Source: Planctomycetota bacterium (lineage in GTDB: Bacteria; Planctomycetota; Planctomycetia; Pirellulales; Lacipirellulaceae). From it: DNA of 64,000 nucleotides. Below the pieces are notes generated by a model that was not told the origin of the DNA, searched no databases, and was given only the letters and a program-made list of their open reading frames with translations. Made by a program: the position numbers and the translations under genes. Shown in pieces: positions 1 through 15,574 of the stretch (positions within the stretch are counted from its first letter, which is position 1; the number at the start of each line of letters is the position of its first letter). The DNA is taken from contig CAUZEA010000001.1 in NCBI GenBank assembly GCA_963578605.1, forward strand, positions 83,749 through 147,748. Direction: 5' to 3'.

Positions 1-1326
1 CACGGGACACTCCGATTTTCCGGCCGTCCGCCACTGCATATTGCCTAGTTCGCAGAAGATTTGGTTAAATGCGAGTGGAAAGAAATCGGCGAACTGTAAA
101 AAGGCAACGGGGCGACCACCCAACAGGGAACGACCAACCGATTTTCCGACAATTGTTGCTTCAGCCAGGGGAGCATTCTTCACACGTTCACCAAACTCGG
201 TACTCAGCCCCTTGGTGACACCAAACACGTCGCCTTTGGGATCTTCAATATCCTGGCCAAACAAGGTAACCCGCGGGTCGCTCGCCAGATGGTTTTTGAG
301 TACCTCCCGGATCGTATCCTTCATCGTCAATTGTGGACCTTCGTCGCAACCCCGATATTCACTGGATGGATCAGTCAGCAAAGCAGGAAGTTTTCGTTTT
401 GCGGTGTGCGTTGGCCTGGAATCGGGAACTTGCGCCGCTGCGGCTTCTGCTGCTGCCACATCCCGCCGCACTTCTTCACGAACCTGCTGCAATTCTGAAA
501 TTGCCCAGCCACTGCCAATCAGGTGCCGTTCGAAATGTTCGATCGGGTCCCCCAGTGTCGTGGCAGCCTCGATGTCGGCCGCGTTTCGGTAGATCGTCTG
601 GTCATCGGCATTTGTGTGACTTGTCAGCCGTTCTACGTTGAAAATGACCACTACCGGTTCGCGCTGCTGGCGAATGGAAGTCACAATCGCTGCCAATTCG
701 GGTGTGTCTTTGAGAACGTCGCGCCCATCGATATGGTGAATTGGTATGCCAAACAAATGGGCTGGCATTCCGTTCGGCAGTGAATAAAACGTTTTATTTC
801 GCGTGTCGGTCGAAATTGCCCACTGGTTGTCTTCAATAAAGAAGAGCACTGGCAGTTTTTCGCGGGCTGCCTCGGCACACGCCTCCAGGAATTCGCCCTG
901 TTGGGTTGTACCGTCGCCAACCGAACAAAAGGCTATTGGCCCCCCAACCTGGTGCTTGATTTCGGCTGCAATCCCAACAGAATGGAGCGCATTATTACCC
1001 ACCGGTCCTGAAAGGCTCAGGATGTGCAGGTCGTCATCAAATATGAAGGCATTCAGTTGCCGGCCATGAGAAACTGAACTGGCAGTGTAGTAGAGTGCGT
1101 TAAAAAAGACCTCTGGCTGTATTCCTCGTGCCAACATCAACGCCTTGTCGCGGTAGTGACAGTGCAACCAGTCGTCGGGTGTGAGCAACCCAGCCAGTAT
1201 TGCCGCACCTTCGTGCCCAGCCCCAGATACGTGGAACGAGGCTTCGCCACGCCGCACAAGTTCCCCTTCCAAGCGGTCGATTTCCCGTGCGGTGACCATC
1301 GCCCGGTAAAGATGCAAAAAGTCCAT
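1..1326 (-). CDS. TPP-dependent 2-oxoacid dehydrogenase E1 component, fused alpha/beta subunits (3' end runs off the window)
   Basis: Absent from the ORF track because it stays open to the window edge. Manual reverse translation is continuous: MDFLHLYRAMVTAREIDRLEGELVRRGEASFHVSGAGHEGAA...SVGDGTTQQGEFLEA...LFFIEDNQWAIST (alpha/TPP part), then LTMKDTIREVL...FGQDIEDPKGDVFGVTKGL...APLAEATIVG (beta part). First ATG is at 1326; an in-frame TAA lies upstream near 1463. Confidence 0.8.
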   Translation of the reverse strand, partial: MDFLHLYRAMVTAREIDRLEGELVRRGEASFHVSGAGHEGAAILAGLLTPDDWLHCHYRDKALMLARGIQPEVFFNALYYTASSVSHGRQLNAFIFDDDLHILSLSGPVGNNALHSVGIAAEIKHQVGGPIAFCSVGDGTTQQGEFLEACAEAAREKLPVLFFIEDNQWAISTDTRNKTFYSLPNGMPAHLFGIPIHHIDGRDVLKDTPELAAIVTSIRQQREPVVVIFNVERLTSHTNADDQTIYRNAADIEAATTLGDPIEHFERHLIGSGWAISELQQVREEVRRDVAAAEAAAAQVPDSRPTHTAKRKLPALLTDPSSEYRGCDEGPQLTMKDTIREVLKNHLASDPRVTLFGQDIEDPKGDVFGVTKGLSTEFGERVKNAPLAEATIVGKSVGRSLLGGRPVAFLQFADFFPLAFNQIFCELGNMQWRTAGKSECPV

Positions 1327-1507
1327 GCGAAGTGACTCGATGTTGGCGGGGGCAGGGAACCCGTGCTGGTAAACTGCACGAGCCGCCCGGATAAAATGAG
1401 GGGCAGGGAGTGTATGGAATATCGACCAGTCTCGAAGCGCCAATCTTGTGTTGTGTGAAGAATTTACGTCGAAAGTTCTCTGGGGGATGCCAGCACTGAA
1501 TGCACTC

Positions 1508-1931
1508 TCAGAACAACTCACAGTCCTGCAGCGGTTCGGAGAGGACCAGCAGTGTGCAACCACTCGCGATGACGCCCCTGATGGCAAACCCCAGCCAGAG
1601 TTCCCAGGACCGATCCCTGCCCACCGCTAAGGCTGTCACCACCGATCACAACTGCGGCAGTCACCTTTAATTCCACGCCCAGGCCAGACACCCAATTCCC
1701 GCTCGAGAGCTTCGCAACCTGGGTCACGCCCGCCACGCCAATGAACAAGCCCGCCAGAGCATCGATGACCAGCTTGATCGTGGTCACTTTGACACCACGC
1801 AATCGGGTTGTCTGTTCCTTGGGCCCCATGGCGGACAGGTGACGTCCGAAGACGGTCCACCGCAAAACGATCGCTAGCACTACTGCCAACGCAAAAGCCC
1901 GCCCTACCCCCAAAGGCAATCCAAACAACAA
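1508..1931 (-). pseudogene. Remnant of a ribose/sugar-type ABC transporter permease (C-terminal half only, frameshifted)
   Basis: ORF 1518-1931 reads FGRHLSAMGPKEQTTRLRGVKVTTIKLVIDALAGLFIGVAGV...AAVVIGGDSLSGGQGSVLGTLAG, matching the C-terminal half of RbsC-like permeases. The expected tail (GFAIRGVIASGCTLLVLSEPLQ) continues in another frame. No N-terminal half lies upstream, and no ATPase or binding protein is nearby. Confidence 0.55.
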
Positions 1932-2212
1932 GGCCGCCGGGCGCGTGCTGACCCTATTGCCAAGCCAGTTTGGGATCTGATTGAGTGCCCTTTGCCGTGT
2001 TCTTGCAGGAATTGAACTCTTCCTACGTAACCAACTGCGTTGGACTCAAGTAGCAGTAGGGTGGAAAACCGCTGCCCATTTGTAGAAAACGGTGCGGTGT
2101 CAAAATACGTTGGACCGACTGGCACGTGTGCCCGACCGCAGACCGCAGTGGGGTAGCGTCAAGGCGTAGCAGCGGCTGTTTCCGGCGGATCTCGCAGTCG
2201 CTTTGGGGGTAC

Positions 2213-3412
2213 CTACGGGACAATGATTGCAGTACCGACCGCCGCGCCTGCCTGCCAAAGTCCGCCCCGCGCGCTAACAGGTACAGCCGGAACAAGATAC
2301 GGAGCACAATTGCCAGGCCGGTAATACCCCAACGCATACTGGCGTTCGCAGGGTGGCGTATAACCCATGCAGTAAGGCAGCACCGGCAAACGGGCAAAGA
2401 AATGGGCGCCCGAAACAAACGGCTGCAAACAAGGCCCCCAGCTGTGCCCATACCGTTCCAGATCGACTTCTTCGAAGTAAAGCGGCTTGTGGTACAGCTT
2501 TGAAGCAGTCCAACGGTACGTCACTTGGGGCCAACAGCGTGGCTGAACCTTCTGGCCATCATTGACGGAACATTCAAAGGGAAAATCTTCACCTTCAGTT
2601 CCAACGATCGCAATATCAAGACCTATGTCGGCCAAGGTGCTGGCTTTGAAGTCTTTGAGTTCCTCGGCACAAAGCTGCTGATTGGCCTGCAGCTCTTCTG
2701 CCCGCGATAATGAACCAAAATCACTTCGGGAGGTCTGCCGGGGCGAATCGGGCCCTGCGGACTTGGGTACGTCAAATGGCAGTAATGGTCCGGATTGATC
2801 TGGCGGTGGTATTGCCAGATCGGGATTGTCTGACGACGACTGCTCAGGGTCGTCGCCCACGTCAAACGAGTCCTCAAGCTGTTTTAGTACATCCACATCG
2901 TCAAGTTGATCGAGATTTTGCAATTCCGTTTCATCGAGCTCGGGTAGCCTTAAGTCTGTTTCATCGAGCTCGGGTAGCCTTAAGTCTTGGACATTCAGGT
3001 TGTCCGTCATTAAATCGCCGATATCAAGATCTTGCAGATCCTCTGGTTGGGTCGCCTCAGGCCCTTGATCAACGGGGGCTTCGGCGAGCTGCGCCAAGTG
3101 GAGGCCCCTTTTTTGAGGCTGGCGGTGGACCACAATGCTTTTGAGTCGTACTCGGCCAGCCTCCGGGCCAATGATGCCTGCTCGCATTTGCCCCTCAAAT
3201 CGTACCGGGATGGGTTGCACCACCGGCGGTCGAGTGGAAACTGCTATGTCACGTGCTACTGGCTCGATCGCTGCCCACATCGATCTTGGACGTTGCGGTT
3301 GATCGGCCTGACGAAATTGCCAGCCGAGTTCCTCCGAAGCGGTGGTCTGGCCGACGAAGGCCAAAACAATGCCGGGCAACATTAGCAGCGTCAAGAGACC
3401 CGGGCTGGCCAC
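2213..3412 (-). CDS. Hypothetical membrane-anchored protein with an acidic repeat region and a conserved-looking C-terminal domain
   Basis: The 538-aa ORF overlaps guaB at its 5' end. A plausible start is the GTG at 3412 just downstream of the guaB stop (alternative ATG at 3382), giving the hydrophobic anchor LLTLLMLPGIVLAFVG. The C-terminus is KPLYFEEVDLERYGHSWGP...LPVLPYCMGYTPP. Confidence 0.6.
   Translation of the reverse strand: MASPGLLTLLMLPGIVLAFVGQTTASEELGWQFRQADQPQRPRSMWAAIEPVARDIAVSTRPPVVQPIPVRFEGQMRAGIIGPEAGRVRLKSIVVHRQPQKRGLHLAQLAEAPVDQGPEATQPEDLQDLDIGDLMTDNLNVQDLRLPELDETDLRLPELDETELQNLDQLDDVDVLKQLEDSFDVGDDPEQSSSDNPDLAIPPPDQSGPLLPFDVPKSAGPDSPRQTSRSDFGSLSRAEELQANQQLCAEELKDFKASTLADIGLDIAIVGTEGEDFPFECSVNDGQKVQPRCWPQVTYRWTASKLYHKPLYFEEVDLERYGHSWGPCLQPFVSGAHFFARLPVLPYCMGYTPPCERQYALGYYRPGNCAPYLVPAVPVSARGGLWQAGAAVGTAIIVP
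2928..2987. repeat. Perfect 30-bp tandem duplication inside a CDS
   Basis: gtttcatcgagctcgggtagccttaagtct occurs twice back to back. It encodes the duplicated DLRLPELDET on the minus strand. Confidence 0.9.
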
Positions 3413-3419
3413 CCGGGTG

Positions 3420-5216
<1,797 letters not shown>

Positions 5217-9164: not shown

Positions 9165-11885
9165 ATGGCTGAGCTTAAAACGTTCGTGTTCACCGACCTT
9201 GCTGACTCGGTCCGTTTGAAGGACGAGATGCCCGGGCAAAGTACCACGGAGCGCGACCAGGCATTTATTGAAACCATCTTATCGCCGCATCGCGAATATA
9301 TTGGGCGCGAGCTGGCGGCCTGCGACGGACGGATTGTATCAACTGCCGGTGACGGACACTTTATCGTGTTCGCGGATACGATTCTGGCTGCCCGCTGGGC
9401 AATCGCGATTCAAGAGATCCACCGCGATACTCCGCTCATGTCACCCCGGCACCATCCCATCGATGTCCGCATCAGCATTCACGTCGGGATCCCCCAGATC
9501 GACCCTCATGACACAAACAACTTTGTCGGCAAGCCGGTCGACTATGCTGCCCGCCTGAACGACTATGCCTCGGGGCGACAAATTCTCGTGTCGCGGAGCG
9601 TGGTGGCGATCCTGGAAGACGCTGGCATGGATGGGGTCACGTTTCACCGTCATGGTCACCGCGACTTGAAGGGCATCGGAGATATTGATGTGTTTGAGTT
9701 GATTTACGGCGATGACGGGCCGCGGCGCACCCGTCACGATCCATCCGAACTACGCGCCCGACAATGGTCGGTCATCCCCTCGACGATGGGATTGAGTGAA
9801 TTTTGTGGTACGGCCCCGCCGCCCGGAACGAAGACCCGTTTAACTTCCCAATCACGAAAGTTAGGCAACTACGAACTGGGCGAATTGTTGGGCAGTGGCG
9901 GCATGGGCGATGTCTACAAGGCCCGGCATACGCAGTTTGGACGGACGCGGGCAGTTAAGGTCATCAAGCAGCATTTCGTCGACACCGGACACGAAGAGGT
10001 CATCCGTCGGTTCTATCGCGAGATTCAGGCGGTTGGCCGACTGGAACACCCGAACATCGTGGTCGCGATCGAATCTTCGGCGCCGTCAGATGCCCTGCAT
10101 TACCTCGTTATGGAGTATATCGTTGGCGTCGACGTCGAGGGGTTGGTGGGCGAGCAAGGGCCCATGAGAATTGCCGACGCCTGCGAGGTTGCCCGCCAAA
10201 CCGCAGTCGGTCTCGCCTACATTCACCAGTACGGCATGGTTCACCGCGACATCAAGCCATCGAACCTGATGCTTACGGTTGTGGCCAATCACTCGTCGGC
10301 CGAAAGCACTCTGTTGTCGGACCAGGACGAGGCCAAGCCGAACCAATGCCTGGTCAAGATTCTTGATCTTGGCTTGGCCCTGCTGGCGAGCGACGATGCC
10401 GAACGACTTACTGTGTTCCACGACCGCGCCATGGGTACAGGCATGTACATGGCTCCAGAACAGTGGCGGACGACAAGTGTCGACATCCGGGCAGACATTT
10501 ACAGTCTGGGTTGCACACTCTACCACATGCTAAGTGGCCAACCGCCGTTTGCTGGCTCGGACCTTCGTCCTCGCCGGGCCCATGAAACGGAAAAGCCAGC
10601 CCGCATCCTCCGCACCGACCAGCCGATTCCGGCTGGGTTGCGGGCTATTCTCCGCAAAATGATGGCCAAACGACCCGCGGATCGATACGCCTCACCCATG
10701 GAAGTTGCAGATGCGTTGAAACCGTATTGTCGTGATCAGAAACTCGTTGATTTGGCCGAGTCTGGTCGCCAACAACTAACCGGGGCTCCCACCCATGCAA
10801 GTGCAGGTTCTGAGACGAAACCTGGCCTGGGCAGTCCGCCACAACCGTTGTCCCACCCTGTCGAAGAGCGGCCATTGCATAATCGATGGTTGACCACCGT
10901 GGCCGTGCTCGTGATGCTCACCCTCATCGTCTCGATAGCCCTCCTGGCAGGACGTCGCCAGGCGAACCAGCAGGACGATCAAACAGCCCGCATGAAAAGA
11001 CTGCAGTTTGTAGCCAGTGTGGCAGCCCAGGGAATCGCCGAGGATATTGAAGACCGCTTTGAGACACTCACCAGGCTGGCAGCAGCGCCGGTCCTCCGCG
11101 AAAACATGGCCGAGCTGGTGAAAAAACCGGATGATCCCGATCGGTGGGCACGGATCCAGGAATGGCTGATCGCGCGAAAATTAGCAGCGGATCCGAAAAT
11201 TGCCTCGGACAGTTGGTTCATCAACGACCTGCGCGGGGTGCAAATAGCGCGGGCCAACCCAAGTGCGAAAAGTCGTGGCAAGAGCTATGCGCACCGCGAT
11301 TACTTCCATGGCCTGGGAGGGGACTTGGACTCTACAAATAGCACAACCATCCCCAAGCCCATCACCCAACCGCATCAATCAGCCGTCTACCGCAGCACCT
11401 CCAGCGGACATTTAAAAGTCGCCTTTTCGGTACCGATCACTAACGGCGCACAACTGGAATCGAAACGCGCGGTCCTGGGAGTGTTGGCGATGTCCGTCGA
11501 CTTGGGGGCCTTTGACGTGTTGAACGATTTCAGTTCCGAAGAAAGCTTGTATCAATCGGTACTGATTGACATCGGGGACTACCAGATTGAAGGAGAGACC
11601 GGACGAGGCCTCGTCTTGCATCACCAAGGGAGGGCAAAACTTGGCGAAGGTGAGGACCTCCCTGTTGTGGGAAGACCACTGTGGGAACGCTTGCAGCAAG
11701 CGAATGAAGGCGCGGATGGCCGTCAGCGACGTGAGGGGACACTCATTGAGCATTATCTCGACCCGATTGTCTCAGGCGGGTTGTTGCAGTCGGCAGCAAT
11801 TTGCTCAGTCGACGACCGGTTACCAGCAGAGCTGGAACATGACACGAACTGGGTGGTTCTGGTGCAAGAGCCCGATAGTCCGTAA
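9165..11885 (+). CDS. Multidomain signalling protein: class III nucleotidyl cyclase domain, Ser/Thr protein kinase, one TM helix, C-terminal extracytoplasmic Cache-like domain
   Basis: Cyclase: FVFTDLADSVRL...STAGDGHFIVFAD...GKPVDYAARL. Kinase: LGSGGMGDVYKA...AVKVI...HRDIKPSNLML...DLGLA...YMAPE. TM: WLTTVAVLVMLTLIVSIALLAG. Cache-like: SWFINDLRGVQIARANPS...SYAHRDYF...VYRSTSSGHLKVAFSVPI...GVLAMSVDLGAF. Confidence 0.9.
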   Translation: MAELKTFVFTDLADSVRLKDEMPGQSTTERDQAFIETILSPHREYIGRELAACDGRIVSTAGDGHFIVFADTILAARWAIAIQEIHRDTPLMSPRHHPIDVRISIHVGIPQIDPHDTNNFVGKPVDYAARLNDYASGRQILVSRSVVAILEDAGMDGVTFHRHGHRDLKGIGDIDVFELIYGDDGPRRTRHDPSELRARQWSVIPSTMGLSEFCGTAPPPGTKTRLTSQSRKLGNYELGELLGSGGMGDVYKARHTQFGRTRAVKVIKQHFVDTGHEEVIRRFYREIQAVGRLEHPNIVVAIESSAPSDALHYLVMEYIVGVDVEGLVGEQGPMRIADACEVARQTAVGLAYIHQYGMVHRDIKPSNLMLTVVANHSSAESTLLSDQDEAKPNQCLVKILDLGLALLASDDAERLTVFHDRAMGTGMYMAPEQWRTTSVDIRADIYSLGCTLYHMLSGQPPFAGSDLRPRRAHETEKPARILRTDQPIPAGLRAILRKMMAKRPADRYASPMEVADALKPYCRDQKLVDLAESGRQQLTGAPTHASAGSETKPGLGSPPQPLSHPVEERPLHNRWLTTVAVLVMLTLIVSIALLAGRRQANQQDDQTARMKRLQFVASVAAQGIAEDIEDRFETLTRLAAAPVLRENMAELVKKPDDPDRWARIQEWLIARKLAADPKIASDSWFINDLRGVQIARANPSAKSRGKSYAHRDYFHGLGGDLDSTNSTTIPKPITQPHQSAVYRSTSSGHLKVAFSVPITNGAQLESKRAVLGVLAMSVDLGAFDVLNDFSSEESLYQSVLIDIGDYQIEGETGRGLVLHHQGRAKLGEGEDLPVVGRPLWERLQQANEGADGRQRREGTLIEHYLDPIVSGGLLQSAAICSVDDRLPAELEHDTNWVVLVQEPDSP

Positions 11886-12047: not shown

Positions 12048-12878
12048 TCAATTCCCCAATTGTCGATTCAATGCGTCGAGGTCATTGCGGAGTTCGGTCG
12101 TGAATGACTCGAGTGTGGTTTTGGCCTCCTCGAGTTCCGAACGCAGTCGAGAAACCTCATCCCGCAATTGCCGCAACTGATCGACATCGATGGAAGTCCC
12201 GGATGTCGTCAAATTCGGGCCAGGCATCGAAGCAGCAACCTCGGCCGGGTTCCCTGCAGGGATCGGTGGCAAGGCGGTTGCTGTTGCCTCTGGCGCCTCG
12301 CCGGAACCAGCACCATGTTCACGGCGAACTTTTTCCAGTTCATGCTCGAGATAGAGCGTGTGGGTCACCACGGCACCACGGCCCTTGGGAGTCAAGTAAC
12401 TGGCCAGGCGTTTCGTTTGAAGGCTTTCCAGGAGCGGGCGCAATTCTTCGAGGCCCTTGATCGGCTCCATGCGGGCTGCCCGCCCCCGAAGTTCGCCGAC
12501 GGTCTGCGCCCCGCGCAAAAGCAATTCGGCAATGACCGCCAGTTCCACCTTATCGACCCCCAGCCAGTCATAGGCCCGATGTCGGTACTTGTCGACTCGG
12601 CCACTTCCGGTCACAAAAACGACCGCCCCAAGTTTGCGGAGGCGTTCTAAAGAATCTTCGACGGCCTCTGCGGAGAGCTGCATTTGAGGAGATCGGTTGC
12701 TTTTTTGGTTGCAACCCGCGCAGAGCCCGCTCCGTGAAAGGGGATAATTATCGGGAGTTGTCTTCGCTTTTTCGACGAGGACTCCCAAAACTCGGCGATC
12801 CTCGGCGCTTAAGGGTTGCCAAGAAGGTGCACTGGGGTTTGCGGTGTGGGGGTTTGCTGGCGGTGTTGCTTCATTCAT
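12048..12878 (-). CDS. YceH/DUF480-family protein with a C-terminal coiled coil
   Basis: LSAEDRRVLGVLVEKAKTTPDNYPLSRSGLCAGCNQKSNRSP matches the DUF480 N-terminal signature as I recall it. The C-terminus LRQLRDEVSRLRSELEEAKTTLE is coiled-coil-like. Confidence 0.75.
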   Translation of the reverse strand: MNEATPPANPHTANPSAPSWQPLSAEDRRVLGVLVEKAKTTPDNYPLSRSGLCAGCNQKSNRSPQMQLSAEAVEDSLERLRKLGAVVFVTGSGRVDKYRHRAYDWLGVDKVELAVIAELLLRGAQTVGELRGRAARMEPIKGLEELRPLLESLQTKRLASYLTPKGRGAVVTHTLYLEHELEKVRREHGAGSGEAPEATATALPPIPAGNPAEVAASMPGPNLTTSGTSIDVDQLRQLRDEVSRLRSELEEAKTTLESFTTELRNDLDALNRQLGN

Positions 12879-13003
12879 GGTTGTTTTTCAGCGGGCCTGT
12901 TTTTGCGGAGCGATCCTCGAAGTCAACGAGAGTCGCATTTGCGGCATCTCCCGGCAAGTGGTGTGGCTCAACCTACCCGACCGGAGCTTGTCAAAACAAT
13001 GGC

Positions 13004-13044
13004 GCAAAAAAAACCCCGGGAACCGCTGAGCGATTCCCGGGGTT
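13004..13044 (-). terminator. Rho-independent terminator downstream of the outer-membrane barrel gene
   Basis: The minus strand reads AACCCCGGGAA-11 nt loop-TTCCCGGGGTT followed by TTTTTTTT, about 55 nt after the stop at 13099. Confidence 0.7.
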
Positions 13045-13098
13045 GGAAAGGGTCCTGTTTGAACTCAAGACCGTATAGGTCCTGCCTCGTTCGATCAA

Positions 13099-14433
13099 CT
13101 AGAAGGTGGCAATACAATCAACTCCGAATACGACCTGGTTGAAATCGCCTCCCCCGCTGGTGTCGGACGGCGTCCAGTTGTAACGAACCTCCGGACGGAC
13201 GGTGAGGTTGGCGTGTGCCCGGTAATTGATACCACCGGTAAGCTCATAGTATGAACTATAGTCGCCGAAGATATTGCTCTTCCACCATTCAGCACGACCG
13301 CCAACGGCCCAGCAATCGTTCAGGGTGTAGAACAAGTACTGATTAATACCAACATCTTCACGATCGTTTTGATCAGTATAGTAATCACTCTGGAGAACAT
13401 ACGTCAGGCAATTCGTCAGAGTGGCATCGAAGACCACGCTGTGGCTATAGCCGTCAGTACCGTTACTCCGCTTACCGAAATTGCCGGCAGTGAGAATGTA
13501 GGCAACCGAGACGTCATCGACTACGCTGGTGCTGAAACCACCCAGGAAGCTCGAACCGTTGTCATATTGGTCGAAACCAGTATCCCAACCGAGGGTCCAA
13601 CCAGCATAGATATCGGTACCACAGTTGCTATAGGTCGCCAAAACACCAGTGTGTGTGAACGGCTCGCTATTGTACATCGTGTATGAATGGCTATAGAAGA
13701 AGTTTTGTGGAGCTGGAATAACTTCGTAGCCAACGAGCGTGAAAAAGTGACCAGCGATAACTGACCAGTCGCCATAGGCAACTTCGGCGTAAAGCTGAGG
13801 AAGAGCCCAACCGTAATAGCCATGGTCGAAGCCGTTCTCGTAGTCCCAGTGACCCGAATTGTTACCGAACGCCTGCGTTTTCTGAGCATCGGTACCGTAC
13901 ATGAGGTCAGCACGCATACCCCAATCCCAACAGCAGGGACTGGCGTTTGCCTTTTTCTCTAGGTAAAGCCATGCCTGTTGAAGTCGGATGCCATCTGGCA
14001 CGTCGTTGAATGACCCGAGGTCACCCGGTGAAAACGACATGCGCGTCGTATCACTGTGGTAACCTAACTGCGTCCAACCACCGAAGTCCCAGCAGGAGCA
14101 GGGACAGAGTTGGTCTTTGAGCGTGCAGGGATCGCCCAGGCAGCAATCATCGTAACAGTTACCCCATCCGCCACCGCAAGGGTCGCCGCCACAGCAGTCG
14201 CCACAGCCAGTGTCGCAGCAGCAATCCGATTCGCAGCAGCAATCCGATTCGCAGCAGCAATCCGATTCGCAGCCGCAATCCGATTCGCAGCCGCAATCCG
14301 ATTCGCAGCCGCAATCCGATTCGCAGCCGCAACCAGCCAAGTTGTAATTAAATGCCGTTTGGATCGTTGATTGTGCCATCACAGGCATAGCACAAAACGT
14401 CAGGACGGCCGCAGACAGTGTCCATCTCGCCAT
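13099..14433 (-). CDS. Outer-membrane beta-barrel protein (BBP7/DUF1551-like, tentative) with an extremely Cys-rich repetitive N-terminal head
   Basis: Start MARWTLSAAVLTFCAMPVMAQS (signal peptide) at 14433; the longer ORF start at 14589 is unlikely. Aromatic-rich alternating pattern throughout. The terminal ...FGVDCIATF ends in Phe as in OM barrels. The head is (CGCESD)x4 (CCCESD)x2 CCC... Confidence 0.8.
   Translation of the reverse strand: MARWTLSAAVLTFCAMPVMAQSTIQTAFNYNLAGCGCESDCGCESDCGCESDCGCESDCCCESDCCCESDCCCDTGCGDCCGGDPCGGGWGNCYDDCCLGDPCTLKDQLCPCSCWDFGGWTQLGYHSDTTRMSFSPGDLGSFNDVPDGIRLQQAWLYLEKKANASPCCWDWGMRADLMYGTDAQKTQAFGNNSGHWDYENGFDHGYYGWALPQLYAEVAYGDWSVIAGHFFTLVGYEVIPAPQNFFYSHSYTMYNSEPFTHTGVLATYSNCGTDIYAGWTLGWDTGFDQYDNGSSFLGGFSTSVVDDVSVAYILTAGNFGKRSNGTDGYSHSVVFDATLTNCLTYVLQSDYYTDQNDREDVGINQYLFYTLNDCWAVGGRAEWWKSNIFGDYSSYYELTGGINYRAHANLTVRPEVRYNWTPSDTSGGGDFNQVVFGVDCIATF
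14215..14332. repeat. 18-bp tandem repeat array, six full units plus a partial seventh, in frame within a CDS
   Basis: gcagcagcaatccgattc x3, then gcagccgcaatccgattc x3, then gcagccgcaa. Encodes CCCESD and CGCESD units on the minus strand. Confidence 0.95.
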
Positions 14434-14487
14434 GTTCACTTTTGGACTCCTTTTCCCGAGTAATTTATCGGTTGTTGCGGCAACGCT

Positions 14488-14533
14488 TGCCGCACCCACT
14501 CCGTCGAATGTGCCGCACCCACTCCGTCGAATG
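14488..14533. repeat. Perfect 23-bp tandem duplication in the 5' region of the barrel gene
   Basis: tgccgcacccactccgtcgaatg occurs twice back to back, 55-100 nt upstream of the ATG at 14433. Confidence 0.9.
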
Positions 14534-14830
14534 GAGACCCGTGCAACACGACACATGCAGCACAGGCCAGCCGGAACATCAACCGCCACTAGCCCCTACA
14601 TCGACTCCACTCACACGGAGGATGAACGGCCAAACTGACGATTTGCAGAGAATAGGCAGGGAATCGGCTTAAACTGGATAATTTTTGCCGCTTGTTGAAG
14701 AAGTGCGGCCGCCGAACCTGCCTGCTGGTGGTCAGGGGCAAAGGCGGCACGCGTTCGTTTGCATCCGCATCGGACCTGGAACGTGCCTCAGGCAGTAAAG
14801 CCCGATGAAGAAAACAGGCAATCGGGTCTT

Positions 14831-15574
14831 TCAAATCTTTTCGTTGGGATTCTCGGCTTCTTGAAAACGGTCGACTCGCCATCCAGCATTCGGCTGGGCA
14901 ACCCCACGTTTTTCCATCGTTAATGCGACCGGCAAAGATCCCGACCCGATTGGCCCCTGCACGGTAAATTGAAGAATCACCAGCTTCCGGTCATGAGGCA
15001 ATTGTTCGGTGGCAACGGTTTTGTCAAATTGGACCTTGGCCTGTTCACCCCAGTCGATCAGTTTCGCGACGACCGGCGAGGCTTTAAACTGGTCGATTGG
15101 ACTTTCTGTGGAACTGCCAAAGGGTGAGGGTACGGGAGGCTTTTTGGCCGGGCGTTGGAACGCCGTGGTAAGGTAAAACGCCGTTTCCGGCTGACCATTC
15201 CGGAGATGATCGAACCACACGAGAGCGGTTGGCCGCGCCTGCCGCGACAAGAGCCAGGTGGTAACCTGTTTTTTCATGGGCACTGCACAGGCAGAGGCGA
15301 TCGCCAAGGCCAATCCCACCAGTGCTGCTTTCCGGCCAAAGAGTCGGCCGTCGCTAGCAGCGATCTTTGCCAGGGCAAGCAGTGAAATGGCGATTCCCAA
15401 CCCGGGAATGGCTATCAGCAACGGGGCGGTGAAAACCAGGGGGGAGGCCAGGCCCAAAAGGAAGCTGAAAATGGCGAGTCCACTAGGAGACCGATACGAC
15501 GCCAACTGTTCGGCTTCGTGAGTCGATCTTGCCGGTTCTATCAACGGCTTTCCGGTCGTTACGTGAGACTCCAT
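14831..15574 (-). CDS. Hypothetical membrane protein (two N-terminal TM helices, DUF4190-like, plus a soluble domain)
   Basis: GLAIFSFLLGLASPLVFTAPLLIAIPGLGIAISLLALAKIAASDG. It is the only long ORF in this interval. Confidence 0.55.
   Translation of the reverse strand: MESHVTTGKPLIEPARSTHEAEQLASYRSPSGLAIFSFLLGLASPLVFTAPLLIAIPGLGIAISLLALAKIAASDGRLFGRKAALVGLALAIASACAVPMKKQVTTWLLSRQARPTALVWFDHLRNGQPETAFYLTTAFQRPAKKPPVPSPFGSSTESPIDQFKASPVVAKLIDWGEQAKVQFDKTVATEQLPHDRKLVILQFTVQGPIGSGSLPVALTMEKRGVAQPNAGWRVDRFQEAENPNEKI

Follow-up and report, generated by a model that had tools for sequence, protein, structure and literature searches.

The stretch of DNA analysed here, 64,000 nucleotides from a planctomycete of the family Lacipirellulaceae (hereafter, the window), encodes on its minus strand a putative outer-membrane porin of the BBP2 family whose barrel is preceded by a cysteine-rich head, part of which is encoded by an 18-bp tandem array. 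This protein is an undescribed variant of a known design, in which a barrel of the general-porin type is preceded by an N-terminal arm, most likely periplasmic here. From the predicted topology and the cysteine pattern of the family, we infer that the head may be the periplasmic tether arm of a 16-strand BBP2 porin, bearing oxidatively cross-linked thiols; this reading is put forward tentatively, with slightly less than even confidence. In the open-access literature searched, no description of a cysteine-rich head of BBP2/DUF1597 porins was found.

Barrel, topology and architecture of the head

The minus-strand open reading frame (ORF) finishing at 13099 encodes 444 amino acids counted from ATG 14433, and all residue numbers given here count from this codon. 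Residues 117-444 matched the Pfam family BBP2 (PF07642) with 239 bits (cut-off 26.2; E 1.1e-70) over profile positions 4-339 of 339. BBP2 was the sole significant family, whereas BBP7, to which an earlier reading made from the sequence alone (hereafter, the sequence-only reading) had likened the barrel, gave no match at E<=1. The BBP2 family has been listed for Planctomycetes among other phyla and described as "of unknown structure and function", and pore formation by its members is presumed (PMC4827864).

The AlphaFold2 (AF2) model, built on 52 homologs, consists of a confident 16-strand barrel (predicted template-modelling score, pTM, 0.74; predicted local distance difference test, pLDDT, mostly 85-95). 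Loops of 8-28 residues, the third of them helix-bearing, follow the odd strands, and turns of 2-8 residues follow the even ones. Long loops after odd strands and short turns after even strands are the canonical topology of porins with periplasmic termini. Because the loop pattern of the model is of this kind, both termini, and hence the head, were placed in the periplasm, which is its most likely location according to the predicted topology and the general porin rule, and not on the cell surface. A Foldseek search of the PDB retrieved only 16-strand trimeric general porins (E ~1e-11), headed by OmpM1 (8bys; E 3.8e-11, template-modelling scores 0.48/0.63, identity 13%). All six cysteines of the barrel (167, 168, 271, 342, 374 and 440) fall in turns or ends predicted to face the periplasm, and two of them are widely conserved (C374 in 51 and C167 in 40 of the 52 homologs).

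The precursor reads MARWTLSAAVLTFCAMPVMA|QSTIQTAFNYNLAG(CGCESD)4(CCCESD)2CCCDTGCGDCCGGDPCGGGWGNCYDDCCLGDPCTLKDQLCPCSCWD, followed by the barrel, which ends in ...VDCIATF. The head measures 95 residues and contains 28 cysteines, all of them within the 80 residues from 35 to 114 (35%), out of a precursor total of 35. Most of this architecture had been recognised in the sequence-only reading: the ORF at 13099-14433, about 28 cysteines counted by eye, the order (CGCESD)4(CCCESD)2 continuing into CCCDTGCGDCCGGDPCGGGWGNCYDDCCLGDPC...CPCSCW, the near-perfect 18-bp array in two variants and a signal-peptide-bearing outer-membrane beta-barrel ending in Phe were all recovered from the ORF list, the translation, Tandem Repeats Finder (TRF), Pfam and the AF2 model. 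One detail was corrected, namely that the cysteines would begin right after the signal peptide, since the 12-residue tip QSTIQTAFNYNL and an Ala-Gly pair intervene before the first cysteine.

By inspection, the signal peptide shows a positive n-region, a hydrophobic core and V-M-A at positions -3 to -1. Homologous heads were surveyed in the window protein and its 120 closest homologs, 71 of which have a recognisable full head, and the cleavage context [AG]|[QED][STE] was kept across these 71. Lipidation at C14 within L-T-F-C was considered and rejected, Phe at -1 being unfit for a lipobox and the cysteine being present in just 18 of 52 homologs. The core motif of the tip, [TSADL][AS]F[NDSTE][YFC], was present in 70 of the 120 close homologs versus 7 of 120 shuffled sequences; cleavage site and tip together follow the consensus [QE]xx[IV]Q[TS]AF[ND]YxL, and in alignment A3 little or no variation is seen at A7, F8 and L12 of the head.

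Behind the tip, six full repeat units (14331-14224) comprise four copies of TGCGGCTGCGAATCGGAT, encoding CGCESD, and two of TGCTGCTGCGAATCGGAT, encoding CCCESD; an incomplete seventh unit (CCCD) comes next. The units of each variant are identical in DNA, and a single G>T change (Gly>Cys) separates the two variants; the array is far beyond chance. Conservation rises further downstream: positions C71, C73, C77 and C81 of the non-repetitive part are cysteine in 42-47 of 52 aligned homologs (C77 in 47), and in the junction with the barrel C97 is cysteine in 51 and C112 in 43 of 52, L99 hardly varies and G100 does not vary at all. The junction takes the form C[CN]LG[DE]P[WC]TL among close homologs, and the motif G[DE][PA][WCFYI]x[LIVM] was found in 106 of 120 close homologs (1 in shuffled sequences) and in 39 of 150 distant representatives (5 in shuffled sequences). 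In the AF2 model, residues 1-90 have pLDDT below 50 and no helix is predicted in residues 21-104, while the junction (91-115) reaches 67-84 and includes a helix at 105-109.

Searches with the head itself returned no relatives outside the family. Residues 1-116 had no Pfam match, and the head alone matched no Pfam family at E<=10. Only chance matches were obtained in the PDB sequence search (E>=0.37, such as caspase-3 at E 0.4-0.7), and searches of Pfam, NCBIfam and the PDB together gave nothing or chance matches, including the Ser-Asp repeats of ClfA/ClfB (E 0.05-0.1). A head-only homology search with 63 residues of repeats yielded 134 word-sharing candidates, none at E<=0.001, low complexity defeating HMMER. 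The head was not found on other protein families by a head-profile search (A3) of poor sensitivity, whose 13 matches were without exception porin fragments, short or partial; PF07642 was recognised in two of them and another domain in none. Sub-threshold Rfam matches to microRNAs and small RNAs in 12900-14900, some of them on the repeat itself, were rejected as chance. The features of the gene and its product are collected in Table 1.

Table 1. Coordinates of the porin gene, its flanking signals and the parts of its product in the window.
Feature	Position	Strand	Details	Source
Coding sequence of the porin gene	13099..14439	-	from GTG 14439 or ATG 14433 to stop TAG 13101-13099	
Conserved 5' leader/promoter region	14440..14680	-	~240 nt	alignment of 4 gene copies
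Shine-Dalgarno sequence	14447..14452	-	AAGGAG; 7 nt before GTG 14439, 13 nt before ATG 14433	read from sequence
Sec-type signal peptide	14374..14433	-	aa 1-20 (MARWTLSAAVLTFCAMPVMA|QS), AxA-type cleavage site	sequence inspection
Mature N-terminal tip	14338..14373	-	QSTIQTAFNYNL, aa 21-32, conserved	homolog comparison
18-bp tandem array	14213..14332	-	6.7 copies, 99% match, score 219	TRF
Non-repetitive Cys/Gly/Asp-rich part of head	14146..14223	-	CCCDTGCGDCCGGDPCGGGWGNCYDD, aa 71-96	translation
Junction motif	14092..14145	-	CCLGDPCTLKDQLCPCSC, aa 97-114, immediately before strand 1	conservation and AF2
BBP2 (PF07642) 16-strand beta-barrel	13102..14085	-	aa 117-444, C-terminal Phe	Pfam, AF2, Foldseek
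Intrinsic-terminator-like hairpin	13012..13044	-	15 pairs then T run, 55 nt past stop	terminator scan

Repeat turnover and the modular plan of the family

Four gene copies from three assemblies (the window, L002 and copies a and b of L001) were compared, and their unit counts were 5, 6, 6 and 8, with the head always in frame and the same signal peptide. L002, a metagenome contig (96% identical), carries (CGCESD)3(CCCESD)2. Copy a of L001 has eight units (CGCESD, CCCEAD, four CCCESD, CCCESN and CCCEAD), and copy b has six CGCESD units, whose only differences are at four third-codon positions, with no replacement changes; such divergence is the mark of purifying selection acting on the peptide, as far as can be read from the comparison. 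The number of units thus ranges from 5 to 8 among sequences at least 75% identical, and units of the CGCESD/CCCESD type recur in independent metagenome assemblies; P0161, on a contig of 921 bp, possibly has a single unit, although assembly collapse is possible there. Judged from these alignments, the array is young, with whole units gained or lost in frame by slippage or unequal recombination, and the pattern C-G/C-C-[ED]-x-x is kept by selection. The recent expansion and copy-number variation by slippage proposed in the sequence-only reading are borne out by relatives with 5, 6 and 8 units beside the 6 of the window, always in frame.

The exact number of units in the window aside, it is scarcely credible that the array arose from faulty assembly, or that translation begins downstream of it and leaves it unread. 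Such an artefact would be in keeping with heads being often fragments at contig ends, with the exact unit count in the window being known from the assembly alone, and with public calls of related genes (P0001, P0002, P0005 and others) that start at an internal Met downstream of the head and so drop both the signal peptide and the head. However, independent assemblies contain the same units, in frame every time, the only signal peptide, which an outer-membrane barrel needs, lies upstream of the array, a Shine-Dalgarno sequence stands upstream of the GTG/ATG start, the variation between units of L001 copy b is synonymous only, more than 70 full-length homologs carry heads, and an array of 120 bp would be shorter than typical 150-nt reads. 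Both outcomes that the sequence-only reading had named as its own refutation, lack of translation and an assembly artefact, fail on these grounds. The headless public gene calls are an annotation artefact and not biology. Since the head-only fragments matched by the head profile cluster at contig ends, the repeat breaks assemblies; because gene callers cut the head off and assemblies break inside it, public protein sets under-represent the head. Spurious small ORFs were also sometimes called on the repeat (L001 914-1087, minus strand; window 14110-14370, plus strand, and 14159-14332, minus strand).

The window protein has 2854 word-indexed homologs, with 1934 representatives at 50% clustering; where a source is named, it is Aeoliella, Botrimarina, Posidoniimonas, Lacipirellulaceae or Pirellulales. 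Cultured relatives with a homolog include Aeoliella mucimassa (Pan181_11600, P0023), Botrimarina colliarenosi (Pla108_27410) and Posidoniimonas polymericola (Pla123a_06640). Among GTDB representatives the best match reaches only 56% identity, the closest sequences are metagenome contigs, and the exact protein is absent from a collection of 15 billion proteins. A search for other barrels with cysteine-repeat heads, which the sequence-only reading had suggested among BBP7-like proteins, returned more than 70 homologs (50-66% identity) with cysteine-rich acidic repeats of their own, belonging to BBP2. The 71 full heads are 67-126 residues long (median 93) and contain 8-35 cysteines (median 17), with a net charge of about -15 to -20 and 1% Lys plus Arg. 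Their repeats are lineage-specific; CGCEEPS, CACEPD and CCCDEPS, the last in seven copies in P0055, are examples. Because different heads use different repeat units, cysteine-rich repeats have expanded independently many times. The head is thus no peculiarity of one gene; on sequence comparison it is a clade-wide trait of the BBP2 porins of Pirellulales/Lacipirellulaceae.

Among 150 distant representatives, the region preceding the barrel ranges from ~40 to 650 residues and may be cysteine-rich, acidic and cysteine-free, Pro-rich or Lys/Glu-rich; the arm contains no cysteine in P0125, P0141, P0145, P0165 and P0181. Six of 20 long-arm relatives (P0144, P0148, P0151, P0157, P0186 and P0235; 771-980 residues) carry one or two N-terminal PDZ domains, followed by 300-550 low-complexity residues and the BBP2 barrel. 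Bacterial PDZ domains are periplasmic protein-binding modules, and we know of no description of a PDZ-tipped porin architecture. From these comparisons, the family plan is modular, consisting of tip, spacer, junction and barrel, with the window protein as its cysteine-repeat version. A second N-terminal motif, approximately LQQPxxVAP...YDSYYxQ....SPSD, was observed in 23 of the 150 representatives versus 1 shuffled sequence (for example P0043, P0057, P0072, P0208 and P0242), and in some proteins it continues from the TAFNY motif of the tip; a longer ancestral tip module is suggested.

An N-terminal extension in front of a C-terminal barrel superficially resembles type Va autotransporters, and variation in repeat number is common in surface proteins, so that the head might be pictured as a passenger threaded to the outside, serving as an adhesin or surface cross-linker. 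This is very improbable: the barrel, with 16 strands and a long loop of the L3 type, has the fold of a general porin and not that of a 12-strand translocator, no autotransporter family matched, relatives carry PDZ domains on the equivalent arm, and the conserved cysteine partners are found where the barrel has its short turns, on the periplasmic side.

Possible roles of the head cysteines

The cysteine content of the mature proteins of the 71 homologs was even in 32 and odd in 39. Because an even-number bias is absent, the head would have no fixed, fully paired intramolecular fold, and a defined knottin-like fold was rejected by the same test; as judged from these sequences, the lack of bias is compatible with intermolecular bonds. 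Cysteine spacing was non-random in comparison with shuffled sequences: CxxC was depleted ~3-fold (63 observed versus 179 expected), CxxxC and CxxxxC were enriched, and CxC, CxxxC and CxxxxC dominated, the centre of CxC being usually Gly and the residue after it Glu or Asp. Over 238 sequences, cysteines 97, 112, 167 and 374 co-occur with odds ratios of 3-22 and p from 2e-3 to 9e-20, uncorrected for phylogeny. Parity, spacing, the positions of the barrel cysteines, their co-occurrence, the absence of a family match and the predicted periplasmic topology together favour oxidised thiols.

In the proposed tether, the arm would hang off the periplasmic rim of the porin. Between a tip with the consensus QSxIQTAFNYxL and a junction with the consensus CCLGDPxTL...PC, it consists of a hypervariable, strongly acidic spacer with ~20-35% cysteine and no or almost no Lys and Arg, which is predicted to be disordered. 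The conserved junction cysteines would lock onto the conserved cysteines of the periplasmic turns of the barrel, whereas the CxC and CC thiols of the spacer would be oxidised to heterogeneous, largely intermolecular disulfides with neighbouring porins or other cysteine-rich envelope proteins. The conserved tip may contact a periplasmic partner. CxC disulfides are strained and favour exchange, and the cysteine-rich repeats of cnidarian minicollagen domains polymerise by disulfide reshuffling. A lattice of porins might in this way be knitted into the protein layer of the planctomycete envelope, long known to be detergent-resistant (SDS-resistant) and cystine-rich and first described in the 1980s. 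The protein would then function as an attachment porin, working like OmpM or like MOMP/OmcA/OmcB of Chlamydiae with non-homologous attachment parts.

Several points weigh against such a cross-linked tether. The periplasmic location of the head rests on a predicted topology and a general porin rule. The arms of some distant members are free of cysteine, so that cross-linking cannot be what the arm does throughout the family, and the exact length of the array is not critical, since copy number ranges widely. The four co-occurring cysteines could equally form a metal site, and the neighbourhood of the porin gene contains no linked gene for a thiol oxidase or a partner protein.

Of the three roles proposed in the sequence-only reading, namely metal binding, disulfide cross-linking of the barrel into the envelope layer and redox buffering, the second would agree best with the observations. 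Metal binding was the first of them, the head having been called metallothionein-like. The head would then be a thiolate cluster that captures Zn, Cu, Cd or another soft metal at the periplasmic exit of the pore, for buffering or detoxification. A cysteine content of 35% in CxC and CC arrangements, a predicted disorder like that of apo-metallothioneins and a number of cysteines without even-number constraint would all suit this role; the many Asp and Glu residues could add hard-ligand capacity, and the repeat number could scale capacity as in the multi-segment metallothioneins of fungi. Nevertheless, neither metallothionein nor any other Pfam family matched the head even at E<=10, the full protein had no metallothionein match at E<=1, the PDB gave chance matches, and CxxC, which is common in metal sites, is the depleted spacing. 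The net charge of about -15 to -20 with 1% Lys plus Arg differs from the Lys-rich composition of classical metallothioneins, the predicted compartment is the oxidising periplasm, the segment is exchanged in relatives for cysteine-free spacers or PDZ-tipped arms, and metal-resistance genes were not found nearby. A metal sponge is thus unlikely.

A flexible acidic spacer might also suffice as such, the cysteine repeat being a slippage-driven fashion of the clade with no thiol-specific role. The hypervariable length (~40-650 residues) and composition of the region before the barrel over the 150 representatives, the free variation of unit number among close relatives and the lack of head structure in the AF2 model agree with this explanation. 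It does not account for the independent expansion of cysteine-rich units of unlike sequence in many lineages, the synonymous-only divergence of the units in L001 copy b, the strongly non-random cysteine spacing, or the several head columns in which cysteine is conserved in 42-51 of 52 homologs and co-varies with barrel cysteines. Moreover, an exported protein pays for cysteine in cost and in reactivity, and a content of 20-35% would hardly be neutral. A merely tolerated linker therefore seems rather improbable.

Gene context, related systems and the planctomycete envelope

GTG 14439 is probably the true start of the porin gene. It is preferred because AAGGAG stands 7 nt upstream and because the homologs begin with MN[VI]V[RK]W; P0161 begins with MNMARW, and so does the window protein when it is read from GTG. 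The choice between GTG and ATG leaves the head unaffected. The AAGGAG is unchanged in all four related gene copies. The leader contains a perfect 23-bp tandem duplication (CATTCGACGGAGTGGGTGCGGCA x2; 14488-14533, minus strand; TRF) that is single in the other three copies, and a hairpin identical to the terminator also lies 3' of the gene copies in L001.

The leader is conserved across paralogs to the same degree as the coding region, and within it GCGGCAA-GCG-TTGCCGC forms a perfect hairpin that could stabilise the mRNA or have a regulatory role. In L001 (JGI 3300034980, contig Ga0315337_000218), positions 828-4113 hold a tandem segmental duplication of the whole porin unit, from the leader through the coding sequence and terminator to the initial ~100 bp of the DUF480 gene downstream; the two paralogs are 75% identical, and their arrays are unlike (8 mixed units versus 6 CGCESD).

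The surrounding genes encode a Ser/Thr kinase, a DUF480 protein, a CvpA-like protein, two T2SSE ATPases, HisF, a helicase and ThiG, and the genes of this neighbourhood gave no functional link to the porin. Another tandem repeat that is translated in frame (15 bp x 3.7) was observed at L001 4358-4413, at the N-terminus of the DUF480 protein neighbouring the porin, and the DUF480 homolog of the window (12048-12878) carries a related ANPHTANPS segment. The gene at 9165-11885 (plus strand), syntenic with L001, encodes a protein of 906 residues whose Ser/Thr kinase domain is accompanied by two weakly matching regions, one N-terminal and adenylate/guanylate-cyclase-like, the other C-terminal and Cache-like.

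Comparison with described systems places the barrel among the BBP2/DUF1597 putative porins (PF07642; TCDB 1.B.66), whose model it matches end to end; the family description covers the barrel only, and the cysteine-rich N-terminal arm lies outside the model. OmpM1 of Veillonella parvula (8bys; PMC10628300) likewise has a 16-strand barrel after an N-terminal periplasmic extension, and OmpM acts as both pore and tether in diderm Firmicutes (PMC10628300). However, identity with OmpM1 is 13%, and its scores are similar to those of OmpF, Omp32 and OmpT, so that it is no closer to OmpM1 than to these. In OmpM, an SLH domain and a helical stalk bind modified peptidoglycan, whereas the window protein has no SLH match, no predicted helix in residues 21-104 and, in their place, a cysteine-rich segment predicted to be disordered.

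Disulfide cross-linking among the proteins that make up the outer membrane complex in Chlamydiae is established. Chlamydiae belong to the same superphylum (PVC; Planctomycetes, Verrucomicrobia and Chlamydiae) and combine a porin with cysteine-rich elements in their envelope, where cysteine-rich OmcA/OmcB and the MOMP porin are thought to give structure, replacing or supplementing peptidoglycan (PMC2811131). In contrast, the window protein matched none of the Chlam_OMP/OmcB families (MOMP, OmcA, OmcB), and its cysteine-rich element is fused to the porin as a low-complexity repeat, whereas the chlamydial one is a separate folded protein. By these sequence criteria, the window porin is a member of neither the OmpM nor the chlamydial system.

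Metallothioneins, both bacterial (SmtA/BmtA) and the multi-segment copper proteins of fungi, share with the head ~30% cysteine, CxC and CC arrangements, a predicted disorder in the ligand-free state and modular repeats. They differ in that the head is exported, attached to a barrel in a protein of 444 residues and strongly acidic, with hardly any Lys or Arg and with CxxC depleted. Planctomycete walls have been reported to be mainly proteinaceous, and cysteine-rich YTV proteins have been found in wall preparations (PMC8567305). These YTV-domain proteins of Planctomycetales are possible cross-linking partners; they form a separate family without a barrel, and the window protein has no YTV match.

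In a phylum-wide survey of outer-membrane tethering, the known systems were not found in Planctomycetes, and a novel or heavily modified system was suggested (10.1101/2021.05.31.446380). BBP2 porins with periplasmic arms might be this missing attachment system, with an arm that is disulfide-polymerisable in Pirellulales and PDZ-ended in other clades, a proposal that is for now doubtful. If the head binds metal instead, it would be an unusual periplasmic metal buffer attached to a porin. If the proposal is true, the porin lattice would be part of the SDS-resistant, cystine-rich proteinaceous envelope, and its arm would represent a third solution to outer-membrane tethering beside Lpp/Pal/OmpA and OmpM, with a length tuned by in-frame gain and loss of repeats. 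Two questions about the planctomycete envelope meet here, that of its cystine-rich protein walls and that of its lack of a known tether, and a widespread, probably abundant porin family with an exported arm of 20-35% cysteine, a conserved tip and conserved cysteines that would contact the periplasmic barrel rim offers a concrete gene for both.

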